From Candidatus Kuenenia stuttgartensis (lineage in GTDB: Bacteria; Planctomycetota; Planctomycetia; Pirellulales; UBA1268), in assembly GCA_945883745.1 (NCBI GenBank), contig CAMCYH010000001.1:16946-80945 (forward strand): a stretch of 64,000 nt of DNA. The letters are read 5' to 3'. The translations under genes were made by a program, and so were the position numbers. Numbering within the stretch: the first letter of the stretch is position 1; every line of letters begins with the position of its first letter. The notes beneath the pieces were generated by a model. It was not told the DNA's origin and did no database searches. It worked only from the letters and a program-made list of their open reading frames with translations. Below are positions 3,881-49,049 of the stretch, one piece after another.

Positions 3881-4360
3881 ATGCATGTGGCTTTCAAGGA
3901 ATGGGCAGCGATCTGCCGGGCACTGGCCACGGGCCGCCAAGACGTCATTCTTCGCAAGGGAGGCATCGTTGAACCGGGCGGGGCGTTCTGTCTCGACCAT
4001 CGCCGATTTCTCCTTCTGCCGACGTTTCTCCACCAATCGGCTGAGCAATTGATCCCGGAAGCCCGGGATCTCCTCGAGGGGATCAACGCCGACCGTCCGC
4101 CTGACGGGAGCGTCGTGCTTACGCATGAGGCGGAAATACTGCAAGCCACGCGTGTCGAATCGTTCGACGCCTTGACGCGGTTTCGAGGCCGGCACGTCTG
4201 GGCTGATGCGGTGGTGGCGGAGCGGTTTCACCGCTGGAAGGATGAACTGCACGTGCTGGAAGTCGTGGTGCGGCCTCTTGCGGAGCCCCTGATTCTCCCC
4301 TGGCATACCGACTACAGCGGCTGTAAGTCGTGGGTCGATCTCCGCGCGGTAGACTCCTGA
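3881..4360 (+). CDS. DUF1802 family protein
   Basis: The N-terminus AFKEWAAICRALATGRQDVILRKGGIVEPGGAFCLDHRRFLLLPTFLHQ matches the pattern I recall for DUF1802 (LKEWA...LLLRKGGI...F.L.PT..HQ). Confidence 0.7.
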   Translation: MHVAFKEWAAICRALATGRQDVILRKGGIVEPGGAFCLDHRRFLLLPTFLHQSAEQLIPEARDLLEGINADRPPDGSVVLTHEAEILQATRVESFDALTRFRGRHVWADAVVAERFHRWKDELHVLEVVVRPLAEPLILPWHTDYSGCKSWVDLRAVDS

Positions 4361-4386
4361 CCCTCGGGCCAGGATATTCGGGCATC

Positions 4387-5910
4387 ATGCCGCTTCTCGC
4401 ACAGGGTGAACTCGCCACACTCAACCTCTCGCCGGCAGCGGTATGGCTTCTCGGCGGAGCGCTGGTTGCCTACGTACTTTTTCTGCTCGCAATCAGTATG
4501 TATGCCAGTCGGCGTGTCGAGAACGAGGCCGACTACCTCGTTGCCGGCCGGCGGCTTCCGCTCTTCCTGGCGTGGGGTACGCTGCTCGCTACATGGTTTG
4601 GGGCGGCGACGATGTTTGCCGCCGCCGGCGCCGCCCGCGATGAGGGACTGCTCGGAGTGGTGCTCGACCCGTTTGCCTGCGCGGGCACACTTGTGCTTTC
4701 CGGCATCTTCTTCGCGAGGCCGCTGTGGCGAATGGAACTCTTCACGATGGCGGACTTCTACCGTCGTCGGTATGGACCAGCCGCCGAGGTGGTCGGGGCC
4801 TGCATCCAGGTGCCTGCGTACTTTTCGTGGGTCGCGTTGCAATACACCGCTCTCGCAAGAATCCTCGAGCTCTACTTTGGGATCCCGTTCATCCTGGGCG
4901 TGATCGTGGTCGCCGGTGTGACCCTGATCTACACGCTCGCTGGCGGCATGTGGTCGGTGACGCTCACCGACACCGTTCAGATTGTGGTAGCCCTGATCGG
5001 CCTCGTCGTGCTTCTTGTGGCGACCCTTTCCGATCCACGGCTGGGCGACGGTGACCCGGTCCGGGGGCTCATGTATGTATTTGAGCAGGTGGCAGTGACC
5101 CACCCGGACCATTTGCGGCTCGTCCCCGCCGACACGTCGCTGGCGGTCATGCTGGGCTGGCTCGGGGCCTGGGCGACGGGCCTTTTTGGCAACATCCCCG
5201 GACAAGACCTCCAACAACGGGCATTCGCGGCGAAGAGCCCCAACACGGCGATGTACGCCTGCATCCTGGCCGGCGTGCTGTATCTGCTGTTCGGCATGAT
5301 TCCCGTGACGCTCGGCCTCGCGTCGCTTGTGACGCACCCGCATCATTCGATCGATCCGGTCGGCTTCTTGGCAGGCGAATATCTTTCTACGGGCATGTTG
5401 GTGGTGTTTGTGGTGGCTGTCGTGTCCATGGTGGTTTCCACGGCGACGAGTGCAGTCCTAGCGCCGGCCACCATCCTTGGCCACAACCTGCTGTCACGGC
5501 TGCCGGCAGTTGCGGGCCGCCCGCTCTTTCGTGATCGAATGAGTGTTGTTTTCGTGTCGCTGGGGGGCATTCTGCTGGCGATGTGGGGGAAATCATTGAT
5601 GGCGCTGCTCGACGTGGCCCTTTCGATCCAGCTGGTCGCACTTTTCGTGCCGTTGCTGATGGGCATCTACGGTCGACCGCGGGGGCCGCTCGCGGGGATT
5701 CTTTCGATGCTGTTAGGCTTCGGGGCATGGCTGGCGGCGTTTACGGTGGAGCACCTTGATGGCCACATGTCGGCGTCACTCTTTTCCATGATCACGACCG
5801 TTCCATCCGACTTCTGGGGGCTCGGCTTCGCGGTTGTCGGATACATTATCGGCCAGGCATTTTCGGGACAGCGGGCCGTGTCAGTCCTCCAGGAGGTATC
5901 CGCATCATGA
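4387..5910 (+). CDS. Sodium:solute symporter (SSS family) transporter
   Basis: Multi-TM protein with the SSS N-terminal signature LVAGRRLPLFLAWGTLLATWFGAATM. ATG 4387 is preferred over ORF start 4330. Its stop overlaps the next start (ATGA at 5907-5910). Confidence 0.85.
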   Translation: MPLLAQGELATLNLSPAAVWLLGGALVAYVLFLLAISMYASRRVENEADYLVAGRRLPLFLAWGTLLATWFGAATMFAAAGAARDEGLLGVVLDPFACAGTLVLSGIFFARPLWRMELFTMADFYRRRYGPAAEVVGACIQVPAYFSWVALQYTALARILELYFGIPFILGVIVVAGVTLIYTLAGGMWSVTLTDTVQIVVALIGLVVLLVATLSDPRLGDGDPVRGLMYVFEQVAVTHPDHLRLVPADTSLAVMLGWLGAWATGLFGNIPGQDLQQRAFAAKSPNTAMYACILAGVLYLLFGMIPVTLGLASLVTHPHHSIDPVGFLAGEYLSTGMLVVFVVAVVSMVVSTATSAVLAPATILGHNLLSRLPAVAGRPLFRDRMSVVFVSLGGILLAMWGKSLMALLDVALSIQLVALFVPLLMGIYGRPRGPLAGILSMLLGFGAWLAAFTVEHLDGHMSASLFSMITTVPSDFWGLGFAVVGYIIGQAFSGQRAVSVLQEVSAS

Positions 5911-16446: not shown

Positions 16447-17661
16447 GTGACAGTCGTGGATCGGGTGAGGAGCACGGTGACGTTGGCGATGACAGACGAT
16501 GTGGCGTTGCTACAACAGTTGCGGTCTGCCCCTGAACTGTTGGCAGCCGTGGCGGCCTGCTCGCCGGCCGAGCGGGCGAGCCAGAAGTCGCTGCGGGGGC
16601 TATTTCCTGATGAGCTCGTGCGGGCGGCAATTGGGTTGCAGGAGGCACGCGAGCGGGCTGTTGGGCGGCTGCCTCACGCCGAGCGGCTCTGGCTTACGCG
16701 GACGGGACTCGAGCAGGCGACCAGCTGGCATGTGGCCGTGCATAAGGCAGAGCGGTTTGCCGGGTGCGGCGAAGTGGTTGATCTCTGCTGCGGTATCGGG
16801 AGCGACGCGGCAGCGCTGTCTCACCGCGGACAGGTGATGGCCATCGATCGTTCTCCGGCCATGGTGCTGCGGGCCGCCTGGAATGCCGAGGTGCTGGGGC
16901 AGCCAGAGCGGCTTGCAACCCGCTGCGGCGATGTCATCGCCGAGGATTGGGCGGGACGATTCGTACACGCCGACCCCGACCGCCGCGATGGCCGCGACCG
17001 GCCCGCCCGCTGGCTCGAGCACTACCAGCCCGGTCTCGATTGGATGCAAAAGCTTGCGGCGACGGCACGCGGCGGAGCAATCAAGGTGGGGCCGGCGAGC
17101 GATTTCCCCGGCAAGTTTCCTGGCTGCGAGGTCGAACTGGTGAGCCTGAGTGGCGAATGCCGGGAGGCGACGATCTGGTTTGGTGAGTTGGCCGGAGCTG
17201 AGCCTGCCCGGGCGACGAATCTCACCACGGGCGAAAGCCTTGCCGGGAAACCGGCGGACGCACGCCGAAGACTCACCGATCCCATCGGCAGCTTTCTCTG
17301 CGATCCCGATCCTGCCGTGGTGCGGGCGGGACTCCTCGATAAACTCGCCGAGCAGCACGGTATGCTCCGTCTCGATGCCGACGAGGAATACCTCACCGCC
17401 GAGCAGCCTCCGGCGACTAGCCTGGTCACGGCCTTCTCTGTGGACGCGGTGCTGCCGGCGGGCATCAAGGATCTCAAGCGGCATCTACGGCAGCAGCCGG
17501 CCCATCACTACGAGATCAAGTGTCGCCGCCTGGCGATCGACGTGGAGGACGTCCGCCGCCAGCTGCCGACCGGAGATGCCCCACCCTGCGTGGTCATCTT
17601 CTGCCGGATTGCCGGTCGTGCCCGTGCTGTGATCGGACGACGGTGCGAGCCGGTGGGATGA
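16447..17661 (+). CDS. Class I SAM-dependent methyltransferase with THUMP-like C-terminal region
   Basis: SAM-binding motif I VVDLCCGIGSDAAAL. Overall architecture resembles the THUMP-like methyltransferase family. GTG 16447 or ATG 16489 as start. Confidence 0.75.
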   Translation: MTVVDRVRSTVTLAMTDDVALLQQLRSAPELLAAVAACSPAERASQKSLRGLFPDELVRAAIGLQEARERAVGRLPHAERLWLTRTGLEQATSWHVAVHKAERFAGCGEVVDLCCGIGSDAAALSHRGQVMAIDRSPAMVLRAAWNAEVLGQPERLATRCGDVIAEDWAGRFVHADPDRRDGRDRPARWLEHYQPGLDWMQKLAATARGGAIKVGPASDFPGKFPGCEVELVSLSGECREATIWFGELAGAEPARATNLTTGESLAGKPADARRRLTDPIGSFLCDPDPAVVRAGLLDKLAEQHGMLRLDADEEYLTAEQPPATSLVTAFSVDAVLPAGIKDLKRHLRQQPAHHYEIKCRRLAIDVEDVRRQLPTGDAPPCVVIFCRIAGRARAVIGRRCEPVG

Positions 17662-17686
17662 CGCGAGAGCCAACGCCGCTGCAGTC

Positions 17687-17706
17687 CACCGGGCTTCCGC
17701 CCGGTG
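17687..17706 (+). terminator. GC-rich hairpin CACCGGGC-TTCC-GCCCGGTG downstream of the methyltransferase gene
   Basis: 8-bp perfect stem with a tetraloop, 26 nt after stop 17661. There is no U-tract, so terminator function is only inferred. Confidence 0.4.
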
Positions 17707-17738
17707 CTTCCTGGGAGGAGAACGCTGCCCGCCTGGAG

Positions 17739-17960
17739 GGCGGGCGTACGAGAGCGACCGGATGGTTGCCAAGCAAGCTGAGGCCAGGATGGCGAAGCTT
17801 GCGTGAGGTAGCGGCGGGCGTACGAGAGCGACCGGAAGGTCGCCAAGAAAGCTGAGGCCAGGATGGCGAAGCTTGCGGGCGGTAGCGGCGGGCTTTCGTG
17901 AGCGAACGGATGTTCGCGAAGAAACCCGAGGCCACGATGGCGAGGGTTTCGTGAAGCCAG
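17739..17960. repeat. Three tandem 74-bp units, each with two conserved hairpins (candidate structured RNA or REP-like element)
   Basis: Units start at 17739, 17813 and 17887. Units 1 and 2 differ at 5 of 74 positions; unit 3 is more diverged. Hairpin A (GCGACC-GGAW-GGTYGC) and hairpin B (7-bp stem, 16-nt loop GAGGCCASGATGGCGA) are maintained by compensatory changes in unit 3. Confidence 0.9.
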
Positions 17961-17963
17961 CCA

Positions 17964-19061
17964 CTACCGGACGACTCGTGCGCCGCCGCCCTTGATCTGC
18001 TTTTCGACTTCGGCGCGGGTGGCCATCGACGTGTCACCGGGGGTTGTGCTCGCGAGGGCGCCGTGGGCAGCGCCGTACTCGACCGCCTTCTGCGGGCAGT
18101 TGAACTCCAGAAAGCCAAACGCGAGGCCACTGGCGAAACTGTCGCCGCCGCCGACGCGGTCGAGAATCTCGAGTTCGGGATACTGGCGACTGTCAAAAAA
18201 CTGCCCGTCGTGCCAGCAGATAGCGCTCCAGTCGTTCTTGGTCGCCGTGATCACTCGGCGAAGCGTCGTGGCTGCGACCTTGAAGTTGGGATACTCATGC
18301 ACGGCCTTTTCGATCATCTTTCGGAAGGCGTCGGTCTCGATCGTGCTGATCGCATGATCGACCCCCTCCACCTCAAACCCGAGGCTGGCAGTAAAGTCTT
18401 CCTCGTTGCCGATCATGACATCGACGTACTTGGCAATCTCGCGATTGACCTCGCGGGCCTTGGCCTGGCCGCCGATGCTCTTCCAGAGGCTGGGGCGGTA
18501 GTTCAGGTCGTAGGAGACGATCGTGCCATGCTTCTTGGCCGCCTTGACGGCCTCGATCGTGACCGCCGCTGTGGTCTCCGAGAGTGCGGCGAAGATGCCG
18601 CCGGTGTGGAACCACCGGGCCCCGACTTTCCCGAAAATGTGATCCCAGTCGATGTCGCCCGGCTTGAGCTGGCTGGCGGCCGTGTTGCCCCGGTCGGGCA
18701 CGCCCACCGCGCCGCGGATGCCAAAGCCCCGCTCCGTGAAATTGAGCCCGTTGCGGACGGTGCGGCCGATGCCGTCGTCAGCCCGCCATTGGATGAAGTC
18801 GGTCGCCACGCCCCCCTGCATGATGAAGTCTTCGATCAGGTGGCCGACCTCATTGTCGACGAACGCCGTGACGACGGCGGTCCTCAGGCCGAAGCACTTT
18901 CGCAGGCCGCGGGCGACGTTGTACTCGCCGCCCCCTTCCCAGGCCGTGAATTGACGTGCCGTGCGAATCCGTCCCTCACCGGGGTCGAGCCGGAGCATGA
19001 TCTCACCGAGTGAGATCTGATCGAAGGTGCAGGTGCCATGGGGCTTGATGGGAAGGGACAT
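17964..19061 (-). CDS. PfkB-family sugar kinase (2-dehydro-3-deoxygluconokinase-like)
   Basis: PfkB signatures GGGEYNVARGL (N-terminal) and DRVGGGDSFASGL (C-terminal). Confidence 0.88.
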   Translation of the reverse strand: MSLPIKPHGTCTFDQISLGEIMLRLDPGEGRIRTARQFTAWEGGGEYNVARGLRKCFGLRTAVVTAFVDNEVGHLIEDFIMQGGVATDFIQWRADDGIGRTVRNGLNFTERGFGIRGAVGVPDRGNTAASQLKPGDIDWDHIFGKVGARWFHTGGIFAALSETTAAVTIEAVKAAKKHGTIVSYDLNYRPSLWKSIGGQAKAREVNREIAKYVDVMIGNEEDFTASLGFEVEGVDHAISTIETDAFRKMIEKAVHEYPNFKVAATTLRRVITATKNDWSAICWHDGQFFDSRQYPELEILDRVGGGDSFASGLAFGFLEFNCPQKAVEYGAAHGALASTTPGDTSMATRAEVEKQIKGGGARVVR

Positions 19062-21875: not shown

Positions 21876-22163
21876 TCAATTATTCCGGAACGTTTCCCGC
21901 AGCCACTCGTTCTTGCGGCGCTCGAGTTCAATGAGCTTCGCAACCGGGCCGCGGCGGGTCTGCTCAACAGACCGGCTGGAACGCTGAGCGGGGCGGGCAG
22001 AACGCTGCTGCACCGCAGCCTGCGGGGCGGCGTCGACGGCAGCCTCGGTAGCGGCTTCGACAGCCGGATTCGGAGCGGCGGCAGGCGTGGGGGCGTCGGC
22101 ACGAAGAACTGACGGGAGAAGCGTGGCAACGACGATCGCGAACAGAGACGCAAGGCGGGTCAT
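21876..22163 (-). CDS. Small secreted hypothetical protein
   Basis: 95-aa ORF from ATG 22163 with a signal-like N-terminus (MTRLASLFAIVVATLLPSVLRA), an A/P-rich linker and a basic C-terminus. No homology recognised. Confidence 0.4.
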   Translation of the reverse strand: MTRLASLFAIVVATLLPSVLRADAPTPAAAPNPAVEAATEAAVDAAPQAAVQQRSARPAQRSSRSVEQTRRGPVAKLIELERRKNEWLRETFRNN

Positions 22164-40332: not shown

Positions 40333-42471
40333 GGCCAGGAGAAGGCCAAACTGAGCGATCGGCGCGAAGTCGCACAAGGCGAACACGGCAAACGCCGATC
40401 CCAGAATCAGCGATGTACGAAGAATCGGCGCCGCCGATCGGCGGAGCGCTGCGTCTATTCGGTCCCGCGGCTCCGCCGCGTGGCCTCCGCTGCGCATGAA
40501 CCATGTCAAGAGGTGCGCGGTATCGTCGACCGATATGCCCAATGCCACACTCGCCGTCATCATGCCGCCAACATCGAGTGGCTGGCCAAGCCAGCCCAAC
40601 AGCCCAAACACGCAGATGGGTGGGAGAACATTGGGAATCATGGCGACCACACCGGCCGTTGCGCTGCGGAGAAACACCGCCAAAACTCCGACAATCGTCA
40701 CGCACGCGAGGGCAAAGCTTTCCAACAGGGCGTCGAGCAGTTCATGTTGCGCGGCGATGACAAGCGGCACGCCGCCCGTACAGATCGTCGCCGCCGGTGG
40801 CAGAACGTCGAGTGCAGCGACGGCATCCCCGACACTCTTCTCGACGGCGGCCTCGAAGGCCCGTTGTCGCTCGGCTGTAAAGTTGGCGACCTGCAAGGAG
40901 ATTCTCCACAGCTGGCGGTTGCTGGCATCGGCGACCATGCCGGCATCGATGAGCGTGCTCATGCTGCGGCGCAGTCGGCCGTCGATCACCCCACGACGAA
41001 TCACCGATCGCACCTGGCCACGGTCGGCAAAGCCCAACAGATCATCGGGAAGAAACGTGGCCGCCGACATGCTGCCCCGCACGTCGGAGAGCGATGCCAG
41101 CCGCGCCTCCACTTCTTGAGTGAGCGCCGCCCGGTCACCGACACCTGCCCGTGGGTCGTCGAACGCGAGGACCACGTCGACCGTCTGAAAGGGGGCGACC
41201 TGCTCGTTGAACCAGTCGAGATCGGCAATCCACCGGCTCTCTGGCGGCAGAAAGCGTGCCGGTCGCACTTCGGTGCGAATTCGTGATAGTCCGGCCGCCC
41301 CCAGCACCATCGCCGCGAGGCAGCCGATCGTCGACAGCCGGTGCAGCGAGACAAGCCGCCTCACGGCAGCCGTGAAGCGAGGCAGGTGCGTCGTGACTCG
41401 AGCTACTGCCGCTCGCGGTGGGAAAAGCTGCAAGAGCGCCGGCAGGATGCTGAAGACGATCAGAAAGGCCAGGCTGGTGCTGATCGCCCCATACAGACCA
41501 AACTGCCATACGGGCCGGACCTGGCTGACGCACAGCGATGCCAGCCCGAGCACCGTGGTGAGTGTCGCCACAAAGCCCGGCTTCCAGCCGATCGCGACAG
41601 CCGCTGCGGGAGCGTTGCGCAGCCCGTGGCGAGCCGCTTCCTCGGCCCAGTACGCGGCGAGATGAACGGCGGCCGAGATGGCCAGCACGAAGGTCACCAC
41701 GGGGACCAGTGCGACAAGCATGTTCATCGTGCCGCCGGCAAAATAGACGATTGCTTCGGCCGATATCGAGCAGATCCCGGCGACGACAATCACCATCACG
41801 CCGAGGCGGAGGCTGCCGAGCGAGACGCAGGCAACGATCAAGGCGACACCCATCGCCAGATTCGACCAGATGCCGGCAGTGCGCTCGTTCTCCACATCGA
41901 TCGCCACACCGATCACGGCATCACCGGTGAGTCGCAGCGATGCCGGGGGGATGGCCGCCGAATTGCTGGCGGCCTCCCTCACCCAGGCAAAGGCCTCGCG
42001 GCGCGATGGGTCATCGAGCGGAGAGAGCGTGATGACGCAGCAGGTCGTCCGTCCGTCTGGGCCGACGATCACCCCCTGCAGCCGCTCCACGGCGGCGGTG
42101 GCGTCGCATCGCGCTGCCGCGGCGATGCGATCGCGAAGCCGGGTGCCCGTGGTGACCGACGCAAACCACTGCGGCATGGTGCCGGCGCTCGCTGCGGCGA
42201 TTCTGCCTTCCACCGCCTCGGCCAGCTGCTCAAGGCCTGGATGATCGAGCGTGCAGCCCGGCCAACTGACGAGGATCGTTTCGTCGGGGCCAAAATCACG
42301 CAGGAACTCGCGGTAGGCCTGCGTCACCGGTGATCCTTCAGGAAGCCATCCGAGCACGCCATTGTCACGACGGTCGTAGGCATGCCAGGCCCCCCAGCCG
42401 ACGAATGGGAGCAGGCACAGGCCGGCCAACAGGATCCGGACGGCATACCGCGGAAAGAAATCGATGAGCAT
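40195..42471 (-). CDS. MMPL/RND-superfamily transporter (lipid exporter-like)
   Basis: 758 aa from ATG 42471 (MLIDFFPRYAV). The protein has two six-TM bundles, each preceded by a large extracytoplasmic loop, as in MMPL/HpnN-type RND proteins. Confidence 0.85.
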   Translation of the reverse strand: MLIDFFPRYAVRILLAGLCLLPFVGWGAWHAYDRRDNGVLGWLPEGSPVTQAYREFLRDFGPDETILVSWPGCTLDHPGLEQLAEAVEGRIAAASAGTMPQWFASVTTGTRLRDRIAAAARCDATAAVERLQGVIVGPDGRTTCCVITLSPLDDPSRREAFAWVREAASNSAAIPPASLRLTGDAVIGVAIDVENERTAGIWSNLAMGVALIVACVSLGSLRLGVMVIVVAGICSISAEAIVYFAGGTMNMLVALVPVVTFVLAISAAVHLAAYWAEEAARHGLRNAPAAAVAIGWKPGFVATLTTVLGLASLCVSQVRPVWQFGLYGAISTSLAFLIVFSILPALLQLFPPRAAVARVTTHLPRFTAAVRRLVSLHRLSTIGCLAAMVLGAAGLSRIRTEVRPARFLPPESRWIADLDWFNEQVAPFQTVDVVLAFDDPRAGVGDRAALTQEVEARLASLSDVRGSMSAATFLPDDLLGFADRGQVRSVIRRGVIDGRLRRSMSTLIDAGMVADASNRQLWRISLQVANFTAERQRAFEAAVEKSVGDAVAALDVLPPAATICTGGVPLVIAAQHELLDALLESFALACVTIVGVLAVFLRSATAGVVAMIPNVLPPICVFGLLGWLGQPLDVGGMMTASVALGISVDDTAHLLTWFMRSGGHAAEPRDRIDAALRRSAAPILRTSLILGSAFAVFALCDFAPIAQFGLLLASLLAVALFGDLVLLPALLAGSAAGLFGRGMKQDDTADDQQGAGKL

Positions 42472-48880: not shown

Positions 48881-49049
48881 CGTTGACGATGGATGCGTCT
48901 AGCCCCAGCAGCCCCGGCCGCGAGCCCTATGCTGGTTGGTGCTTCATCCCGCCGGCTTGCGCCTGGCGGCTATGTGGCTGACTCGTCTGCTCCACCCAGC
49001 CCCGCTCGCGAGCCCGGGGGCCTGTCCGCATTCGAGCCTCCCACTCGAC

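Follow-up and report, generated by a model that had tools for sequence, protein, structure and literature searches.

A three-unit hairpin array between convergent genes of a planctomycete, probably a local pile-up of an apparently undescribed REP/BIME-like repeat

The 302-bp spacer between two convergent genes of a freshwater Pirellulales-type planctomycete, one for a THUMP-like methyltransferase (plus strand) and one for a PfkB-family sugar kinase (minus strand), is composed wholly of modules from two dispersed palindromic repeat families. It occupies positions 17662–17963 of the stretch analyzed here, 64,000 nt of contig CAMCYH010000001.1 (the window, to which coordinates refer). An earlier note, made from the sequence alone, had pointed out in this spacer three tandem 74-bp units with two hairpins each. 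We regard this array, with a probability of about 0.8, as a local pile-up of the body of an approximately 95-nt dispersed repeat resembling the repetitive extragenic palindromes (REPs) and bacterial interspersed mosaic elements (BIMEs), standing in a two-family mosaic within the predicted 3' untranslated region (UTR) of pfkB. The repeat is dispersed, structurally constrained and polar, lies at gene 3' ends in a REP-type mosaic, and has been gained, lost and amplified among close relatives. Because no account of it was found in Rfam or in the searchable literature, the family is apparently undescribed; it belongs, as far as can be judged, to a familiar REP/BIME- or BOX-like intergenic kind and is not a unique RNA gene.

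The full element, about 95 nt long, contains three hairpins, called 0, A and B, each with GGA in its loop. It begins with hairpin 0, whose loop is YGGAG; an 8-nt linker, TTACGAGA or a variant of it in some lineages, leads to hairpin A with loop GGA(N), and CAAG connects this to hairpin B, which is followed by the tail CGTGAAG-nnAG. Hairpin B consists of a 7-bp outer stem, an internal loop GAG/GA and an inner hairpin GCCA-[G/C]GA-TGGC with a 4-bp stem. The earlier note had described a nearly invariant 16-nt loop in hairpin B with one change in unit 3; one base does differ between units 1 and 3, but the loop is not open and holds this inner stem. The 74-bp unit is the element body, which runs from the 3' arm of hairpin 0 through the 8-nt linker, hairpin A, CAAG and hairpin B to the tail CGTGAAG.

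Copies were collected with an exact 25-nt core pattern, AAGNAANNNGAGGCCANGATGGCGA, for which about one chance match is expected in the 596-Gb genome collection against which it was run (equal base frequencies assumed). The pattern occurred in at least 92 stretches of this collection, with 119 matches in 93 loci among the matches listed, and in 41 metagenome loci; viral contigs gave no match. Almost all genome matches were in metagenome-assembled genomes (MAGs) of Planctomycetota labelled Pirellulales or Planctomycetia, many in each MAG, and two core matches lacking the flanking hairpins (L082 and L089) look like chance. A family profile built from the 102 distinct copies gathered by this pattern, among the matches listed, recognized 140 copies that form 100 arrays, of which 74 consist of one unit, 18 of two, 7 of three and 1 of four, so that 26 of the 100 hold 2–4 units. 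As to the earlier note's question whether further copies exist anywhere, well over a hundred do. Copies at different loci of one genome have a median identity of 86–90%, some pairs reaching 95–100%, and the median between JBIKNV and JBIIIP copies is about 73%; each lineage has its own consensus of the element.

Stems are under structural constraint and loops under sequence constraint across the family, and the signature that the earlier note had read from three units was thereby confirmed on 102 distinct copies. Standard pairs fill 97.4% of the cells of hairpins A and B in these copies, as against 86.8% after shuffling and 21–46% when the partners were slid. Cells changed on both sides number 191, compared with 58 after shuffling and 4–53 with slid partners, and eight pairs of the two hairpins show such changes. 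At least 8 distinct perfect stems occur for hairpin A, at least 10 for hairpin B and at least 5 for hairpin 0, whose covarying stems in full-length family members include GCCGGGC/GCCCGGC, GCGTCGC/GCGACGC and GGCCGCC/GGCGGCC. GGA is kept in loops 0 and A of every subfamily, and loop B reads CGA in about 40% of copies. The invariance of the hairpin-B loop is partly imposed by the exact search pattern; in the 16 profile matches outside that pattern, loop B was mostly kept and two real variants were compensated in the inner stem.

The position and orientation of copies were examined with gene calls based on G+C content at third codon positions, which reproduce the genes of the window. Arrays are intergenic in 88 of 100 cases, and where both neighbours were called (n = 54), 19 spacers are convergent, 32 co-directional (20 + 12) and only 3 divergent. 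With the plus strand of the window as reference, the tail-side gene lies on the opposite strand 52 times versus 21, a polarity that was replicated in an independent metagenome set (24 versus 8). In 16 of 95 arrays the tail-side stop codon stands 11–14 nt past ...GATGGCGA, directly against CGTGAAG; by eye, these abutting stops are TAG in 7, TGA in 6 and TAA in 3 cases. The corresponding offset in the window is 20. The tag next to hairpin B is CGTG or CGTA, and GTAG is found at array junctions only. REPs are likewise located mostly between convergent or unidirectional open reading frames (ORFs), no more than 20 bp from 3' ends, and their termini supply stop codons (Di Nocera et al. 2013, PMC3733652).

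Comparison of orthologous loci is possible because PfkB has many relatives at 90–98% identity in freshwater metagenomes. The spacers beside pfkB are as follows, PfkB identity to the window being given where it applies.
Window and L001: three units.
L094, L095 (98% aa): one complete element and no more, the orthologue of unit 3 together with hairpin 0.
L108, L109 (97% aa, 92.6% nt; same flanking genes): stop codons 11 bp apart, H(-1) hairpin retained, no unit.
L105, a CAZODJ contig (98% aa): contig stops 5 nt past the stop codon, within the first bases of the element.
L096–L098 and L099–L101 (96% and 93% aa): unrelated spacers.
L102–L104 (91% aa): a relative of hairpin B that has diverged; in L103 and L104 it is duplicated, the period being 109 bp.

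Since the number of units is 0, 1 or 3 among relatives that share these flanking genes, this locus has been gained, lost and amplified. We thus observed presence/absence polymorphism at orthologous sites, as is asked of miniature inverted-repeat transposable elements (MITEs), and variable copy number of tandem 40–100-bp units at many intergenic loci, as is asked of variable number tandem repeats (VNTRs) of the MIRU type. The earlier note had maintained that the array is not a slippage repeat. This holds for the unit, which is a selected structure; the array as such is an amplification of variable copy number. In the window and L094, the orthologous unit is identical at 87 of 89 positions, the third codon positions of pfkB at 82% and the adjoining spacer at 66%. 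The CAZODJ assembly appears to have been broken by the repeat. The 109-bp duplication (3593–3783 in L103 and L104; 3593–3674 in L102) takes in the pfkB stop codon together with the diverged hairpin-B relative, GCCGA(G)GCCA-GGA-TGGCTCGGC, in which a bulged G replaces the GAG/GA internal loop and which the family profile missed.

The arrangement of the spacer of the window, in order H4 remnant, H(-1), hairpin 0, three units and pfkB stop codon, is listed below with its two flanking genes. H4 and H(-1) denote the modules of the second dispersed family.
16447–17661 (+): THUMP-like methyltransferase gene (Pfam PF18096, PF13649), stop TGA at 17659–17661.
17642–17661 (+): degenerate 3' part of the H4 module (...AGCCGGTGGGATGA), overlapping the last codons and TGA of the methyltransferase gene; found by the H4-linker-H(-1) profile.
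17662–17686 (+): family linker from H4 to H(-1), CGCGAGAGCCAACGCCGCTGCAGTC, inside the profile match 17642–17713.
17687–17706 (+): H(-1) hairpin CACCGGGC-TTCC-GCCCGGTG, a REP-type palindrome and the isolated hairpin of the earlier note.
17727–17745 (+): hairpin 0, GCCCGCC-TGGAG-GGCGGGC; 17727–17733 pairs with 17739–17745, and the 3' arm is the first 7 nt of unit 1.
17739–17812 (+): unit 1, with hairpin A at 17754–17769 (GCGACC-GGAT-GGTTGC) and junction GTGAGGTAGC.
17773–17802 (+): hairpin B of unit 1, GCAAGCT / GAG GCCA-GGA-TGGC GA / AGCTTGC.
17813–17886 (+): unit 2, with hairpin A at 17828–17843 (GCGACC-GGAA-GGTCGC).
17847–17876 (+): hairpin B of unit 2, GAAAGCT...AGCTTGC, with one A.G mismatch.
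17887–17963 (+): unit 3 plus tail, with hairpin A at 17902–17917 (GCGAAC-GGAT-GTTCGC).
17921–17950 (+): hairpin B of unit 3, GAAACCC...GGGTTTC.
17951–17963 (+): tail of unit 3, GTGAAGCCAGCCA, abutting the pfkB stop codon (CTA, 17964–17966).
17964–19061 (-): PfkB-family sugar kinase gene (Pfam PF00294), stop TAG at 17966–17964 (CTA on the plus strand).

The tandem units were recovered by Tandem Repeats Finder as the single strong array of the window (17739–17954, period 74, 2.9 copies, 85% matches, score 313), and they align without gaps at a mean column identity of 88%. The hairpin sequences quoted in the earlier note are all correct at their positions. Its units are in place as well, except that the element begins earlier than the array start it had given, at hairpin 0 (17727), of which units 2 and 3 retain only the 3' arm. 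The covariance model of the family scores 89.6 bits for 17724–17815 (unit 1) and 92.4 bits for unit 3. When folding was compared with that of shuffled sequence, both strands were more stable (z = -6.1 for the plus strand and -4.4 for the minus strand). The kinase gene is the last of a 2-hydroxyacid dehydrogenase / Ldh_2 / PfkB operon whose gene order is conserved in L094–L109, and in metagenome contig L001 the methyltransferase gene is called at the same position as in the window. With its tail beginning right at the pfkB stop codon, the array would necessarily be transcribed, in reverse-complement form, within the 3' UTR of this operon.

The three units are not of one origin. Units 1 and 2 share 93% identity, against about 75% with unit 3, and their best matches elsewhere are the units of the L063 array (87–88%; 88% for unit 2). 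Unit 3 is 97% identical to its orthologue, the single unit of L094/L095, and 95% identical to copies at unrelated loci of other MAGs. The stems of unit 1 (GCAAGCT, GCGACC) and those of unit 3 (GAAACCC, GCGAAC) are established variants of the family. Three base pairs of stem B do differ on both sides between these units, as the earlier note had observed; this covariation did not arise in place, because units 1–2 and unit 3 come from different pre-existing subfamilies and the "compensatory" changes are differences between subfamilies. The array is therefore not a simple triplication: two extra units from a different, array-type subfamily have been joined at the hairpin-0 loop. Short-period arrays (74–78 bp) of several genomes all have the tail ...nnAG running into the hairpin-0 3' arm, and arrays of 86–88-bp period repeat the whole of hairpin 0.

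The second family was recognized from the surroundings of other copies. In the JBIKNV/CAZODJ lineage, most copies of the three-hairpin element are flanked by two modules, H(-1) upstream and H4 downstream. H(-1), which is CCCCGGGC-TYGC-GCCCGGGG followed by CTKSSTGG, lies 15–45 nt upstream of most of these copies; H4 is CCGC(A)GGGC-GCAA-GCCCGCGG-GATGACGC, and its reverse complement carries a CGTC tag. The two modules are roughly inverse copies of each other and make up a REPIN-like doublet, that is, a second dispersed family. Mosaics in these loci run H4, linker, H(-1), three-hairpin unit, H4. An H4-linker-H(-1) nhmmer profile built from other genomes matched the window at 17642–17713 (plus strand, E = 5e-15), a stretch that takes in the last part of the methyltransferase gene with its TGA, and the hairpin at 17687–17706. 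This hairpin exists as the earlier note had reported; it is not isolated, and is H(-1) of the second family. In the window, too, H(-1) is roughly the inverse of H4, its reverse complement having a GNRA loop, and linkers like that of the window (CGCGAGAGCCAACGCCGCTGCAGTC) are found as GATGACGCnCCAGCCnnCGCCGCTGCAG in JBIKNV and CAZODJ loci. Further matches in the window, where the modules stand without the three-hairpin element, are 2488–2566, 48909–48970 and 48993–49025 (all minus strand), and all four are at gene 3' ends. In another lineage (L111–L151, e.g., L111 at about 3981–4010, L123 and L134), the tail CGTGAAGAC passes directly into a classical GTAG-tagged REP, GTAGGCGAGGGG-TTAC-CCCTGCC. 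In L108 and L109, the called ORF on the methyltransferase side continues through the H(-1) hairpin (403 aa versus 390–404 aa).

The REP/BIME-like element, one of several explanations offered by the earlier note, is thus the one borne out: the family is dispersed and multi-copy, prefers 3' ends, is found in few divergent spacers, often abuts stop codons or provides them, forms mosaics with REPs and is present or absent in relatives. In REP, BOX and ERIC precedents, hairpins serve as 3'-end protection and limit read-through. By analogy, the G+C-rich hairpin stack in the pfkB-sense transcript would most plausibly block 3'-to-5' exonucleases and so protect the 3' end of the mRNA, and it would most plausibly also limit read-through from the convergent gene. 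A trans-acting, sequence-specific protein, binding the invariant loops on single-stranded DNA or RNA, probably drives both the spread of the element and the growth of its arrays. Because loops and linkers are fixed, a sequence-specific partner is predicted, either a mobilizing nickase or transposase or an RNA-binding protein.

Several known systems share features with the repeat. BOX of Streptococcus pneumoniae (boxA-boxB(n)-boxC) and ERIC/IRU of enterobacteria are modular multi-hairpin intergenic repeats of about 100 nt that are co-transcribed with their neighbours, and in BOX the number of tandem internal modules varies. The present repeat shares with both the modular, multi-hairpin, interspersed organization and the size of about 100 nt, and with BOX the variable tandem modules; it has no sequence relationship to them, belongs to another phylum, and what it repeats is the entire body except the 5' arm of hairpin 0. 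In Mycobacterium tuberculosis, Supply and colleagues reportedly described in 1997 the MIRU-VNTRs, tandem 40–100-bp units at many intergenic loci with strain-variable copy number. MIRUs are polar to neighbouring genes, touch stop codons and carry small ORFs coupled to the flanking genes. Tandem intergenic units, polarity, stop-codon contact and variable copy number are therefore held in common; in the present family, however, frames and periods are unfit for coding and units are defined by covarying hairpins.

The REP/BIME repeats of the GTAG and CGTC superfamilies (Di Nocera et al. 2013, PMC3733652) are also close in kind. Like these, the present repeats are hairpin-forming and extragenic, number dozens or more per genome, lie chiefly between convergent or unidirectional genes near 3' ends with termini that can give stop codons, have lineage-specific consensus sequences and form mosaics with other motifs; in the loci examined, the tail of the element is fused to a CGTC-type (H4) or GTAG-tagged REP. 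They differ in that the element is a fixed trio of unlike hairpins (74–95 nt) rather than a single 20–40-bp palindrome, that loops, linkers and the 16-nt internal loop stay conserved from one lineage to another, and that its own tag is CGTG/CGTA, neither GTAG nor CGTC; no REP-associated tyrosine transposase (RAYT) was found in about 1 Mb of DNA around the repeats. REPIN/RAYT systems (Bertels and Rainey 2011, PMC3116915) resemble the present case in the inverted REP doublet formed by H4 and H(-1) and in near-identical copies within one genome; the three-hairpin unit, in contrast, is not an inverted doublet, and no repeat-flanked RAYT gene was seen in the DNA examined.

Several observations weigh against regarding the array as a REP/BIME-like pile-up. 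Clustering of neighbouring proteins revealed none that recurs beside the copies, and Pfam found no transposase among the genes adjacent to the repeat modules of the window. A tblastn search with E. coli RayT over all loci and the window gave nothing below E = 0.4, the DNA covered being about 1 Mb around repeats and not whole genomes. As to the hallmarks of transposition, the 5' end (CACTGCCCGCC...) and the reverse-complemented 3' end (GGCTGGCTTCACG...) show by eye no similarity that would make terminal inverted repeats (TIRs), and the best candidate for a target-site duplication (TSD) was present in 6 of 56 copies at k = 4, over any pair of boundaries. No canonical terminator was found: a scan of 17400–18200 gave no terminator-like site on either strand and no promoter. 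The unit, with 74–95 nt and three hairpins, exceeds the classical 20–40-bp REP, and its loops and linkers are conserved across lineages far beyond what is usual for REPs. Mismatches among distinct stems comprise 25 G:T and 19 A:C and show no strand preference; they give no strand signal, and the earlier note's argument for the plus-strand RNA from a G.U wobble in unit 1 fails family-wide. The 87/89 identity of the orthologous unit could reflect constraint, gene conversion or recent exchange, or a host function beyond that of just a REP.

These points leave some room, in our view a small one, for a more specific version in which the three-hairpin module is a docking site for a conserved planctomycete protein, which would explain why loops, linkers and the 16-nt internal loop are fixed amid exchanged stems. 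Such a module may be a device placed 5–8 nt behind stop codons and acting on the terminating ribosome or on mRNA fate; the copies may be genome-wide GGA-loop decoys or targets of a CsrA-like regulator; or the module may be a new mobile element, with no TIR, TSD or RAYT seen, that inserts at REP hairpins, stop codons and its own first hairpin. The conservation of loops and linkers across lineages is unusual and predicts a specific binding partner, whose identification would tell whether these repeats are host tools or parasites in planctomycetes. The family shows REP/BIME-style genome architecture, including stop-abutting hairpins, to be well developed in a phylum in which it has hardly been described.

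The strongest competitor to a REP/BIME-like pile-up, and a possibility we hold only tentatively, is purely selfish non-autonomous mobile DNA, in which hairpins and loops would be signals for a single-strand transposase (HUH-type or other) encoded elsewhere and arrays would grow via site-specific insertion at the hairpin-0 loop, with no host function. The presence/absence and copy-number differences at one locus, the near-identical copies at unrelated loci of the same genome, and the common junction between tail and hairpin-0 3' arm in short-period arrays of several genomes are all in accord with it, as is the greater similarity of units 1–2 to array units elsewhere than to unit 3; lack of TIRs and TSDs is a property of IS200/IS605-type elements, and wobble pairs have no strand asymmetry. 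Against it, however, no transposase was found beside any copy, viral contigs were without matches, conservation of the orthologous copy far exceeds that of synonymous sites, and the sequence of the element is conserved between lineages that have different partner REPs.

We consider it rather improbable that the element is a protein-binding RNA module. The plus-strand GGA loops would then be like CsrA/RsmA-type sites, so that arrays titrate a regulator, or the CUCC/UCC loops of the pfkB-sense strand would be like an anti-Shine-Dalgarno sequence and act on a ribosome terminating 5–8 nt upstream. Consistent with this are GGA in loops 0 and A of all subfamilies, the nearly invariant inner hairpin GCCA-GGA-TGGC with its rare compensated variants, the fixed spacing from stop codon to hairpin B in 16 of 95 arrays and the strong sequence conservation of the orthologous copy. 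It is difficult to reconcile with CGA instead of GGA in loop B of about 40% of copies, with the absence of the element from this locus in close relatives, and with contexts in which the plus strand (20 of 54) or the minus strand (12) is antisense to both neighbours. CsrB/RsmY/RsmZ sponges do have repeated short hairpins with GGA loops, here on the plus strand; the present repeat differs in that it matches none of these families in Rfam, lacks its own promoter and terminator, is dispersed in dozens of copies and often has CGA in loop B. The tandem small RNA or decoy array proposed in the earlier note and a CsrA-sponge gene, for which GGA loops are present, found no support, for the same reasons: no promoter- or terminator-like site, no Rfam family and dozens of copies per genome. 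For the whole window no Rfam match was obtained at gathering thresholds, and within 17400–18200 thresholds up to E = 10 gave only chance-level matches, so that the scan for a known RNA family suggested in the earlier note was negative.

Slightly less probable still is a bidirectional terminator stack that would serve the two convergent transcripts, methyltransferase and pfkB, and would have been selected for this role at the locus. The array does sit between convergent genes, its hairpins are very stable on both strands, and the family is enriched at gene 3' ends; nevertheless, no T/U tract follows any hairpin of the array, the terminator scan was empty, relatives manage with an 11-bp spacer and no unit, and 32 of 54 copies are between co-directional genes. 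A neutral slippage VNTR or a coding repeat can in our view be regarded as excluded by the evidence at hand: copy number differs among relatives and a 159-aa ORF crosses the array on the minus strand (17485–17964), but covariation is family-wide, multiples of 3 are neither matched by the period of 74 nor preferred among array periods of 74–88, the ORF has no Pfam match, the array is missing from orthologous loci, and units 1–2 are not copies of unit 3.

Several other interpretations were also set aside. Pfam found nothing on two ORFs over the array, which disposes of small peptides, and stop-codon read-through into the repeat was rejected because the stop offsets (11–14) and the periods are out of phase. 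Hammerhead core and K-turn readings of hairpin B fail by eye, as the conserved core residues do not fit; a CRISPR array is inappropriate because the units are contiguous head to tail without spacers. The GTG of the 159-aa ORF overlaps the TAG of pfkB by one base, and long ORFs (72–159 aa) lie on repeat spacers also in L096–L098 (3635–3973) and L106 (2143–2361), some of which gene callers accept. The family explains spurious small ORFs, as well as contig breaks, in planctomycete MAGs, and for the abundant Pirellulales of fresh water it provides a VNTR-like locus and a marker of lineage.

Searches of the literature on planctomycete REPs, MITEs, structured RNAs or CsrA brought up no account of the family, and only the general REP survey (PMC3733652) was found. 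A locus-specific junction pattern had no match in metagenome contigs, in a collection without the relevant samples. Neither nhmmer nor blastn detected other copies of the three-hairpin element in the 64-kb window. The covariance model gave, in the rest of the window, one 30.8-bit match (5291–5375, minus strand) within a sodium:solute symporter (SSF) ORF (4330–5910), with hairpin-A-like and outer hairpin-B-like stems and without the inner hairpin, which is probably a chance match or a decayed copy. The planctomycete repeat is carried by MAGs labelled "Candidatus Kuenenia" and "Chitinophagaceae" (CAZODJ010000014.1, which is L105, and the CAZONY and JAYQOK loci), and the taxonomic labels of these MAGs are doubtful. 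Other imperfect repeats assigned by Tandem Repeats Finder in the window are at 22015–22080 and 41315–41385, with periods of 24 and 31 and 2.3–2.8 copies.

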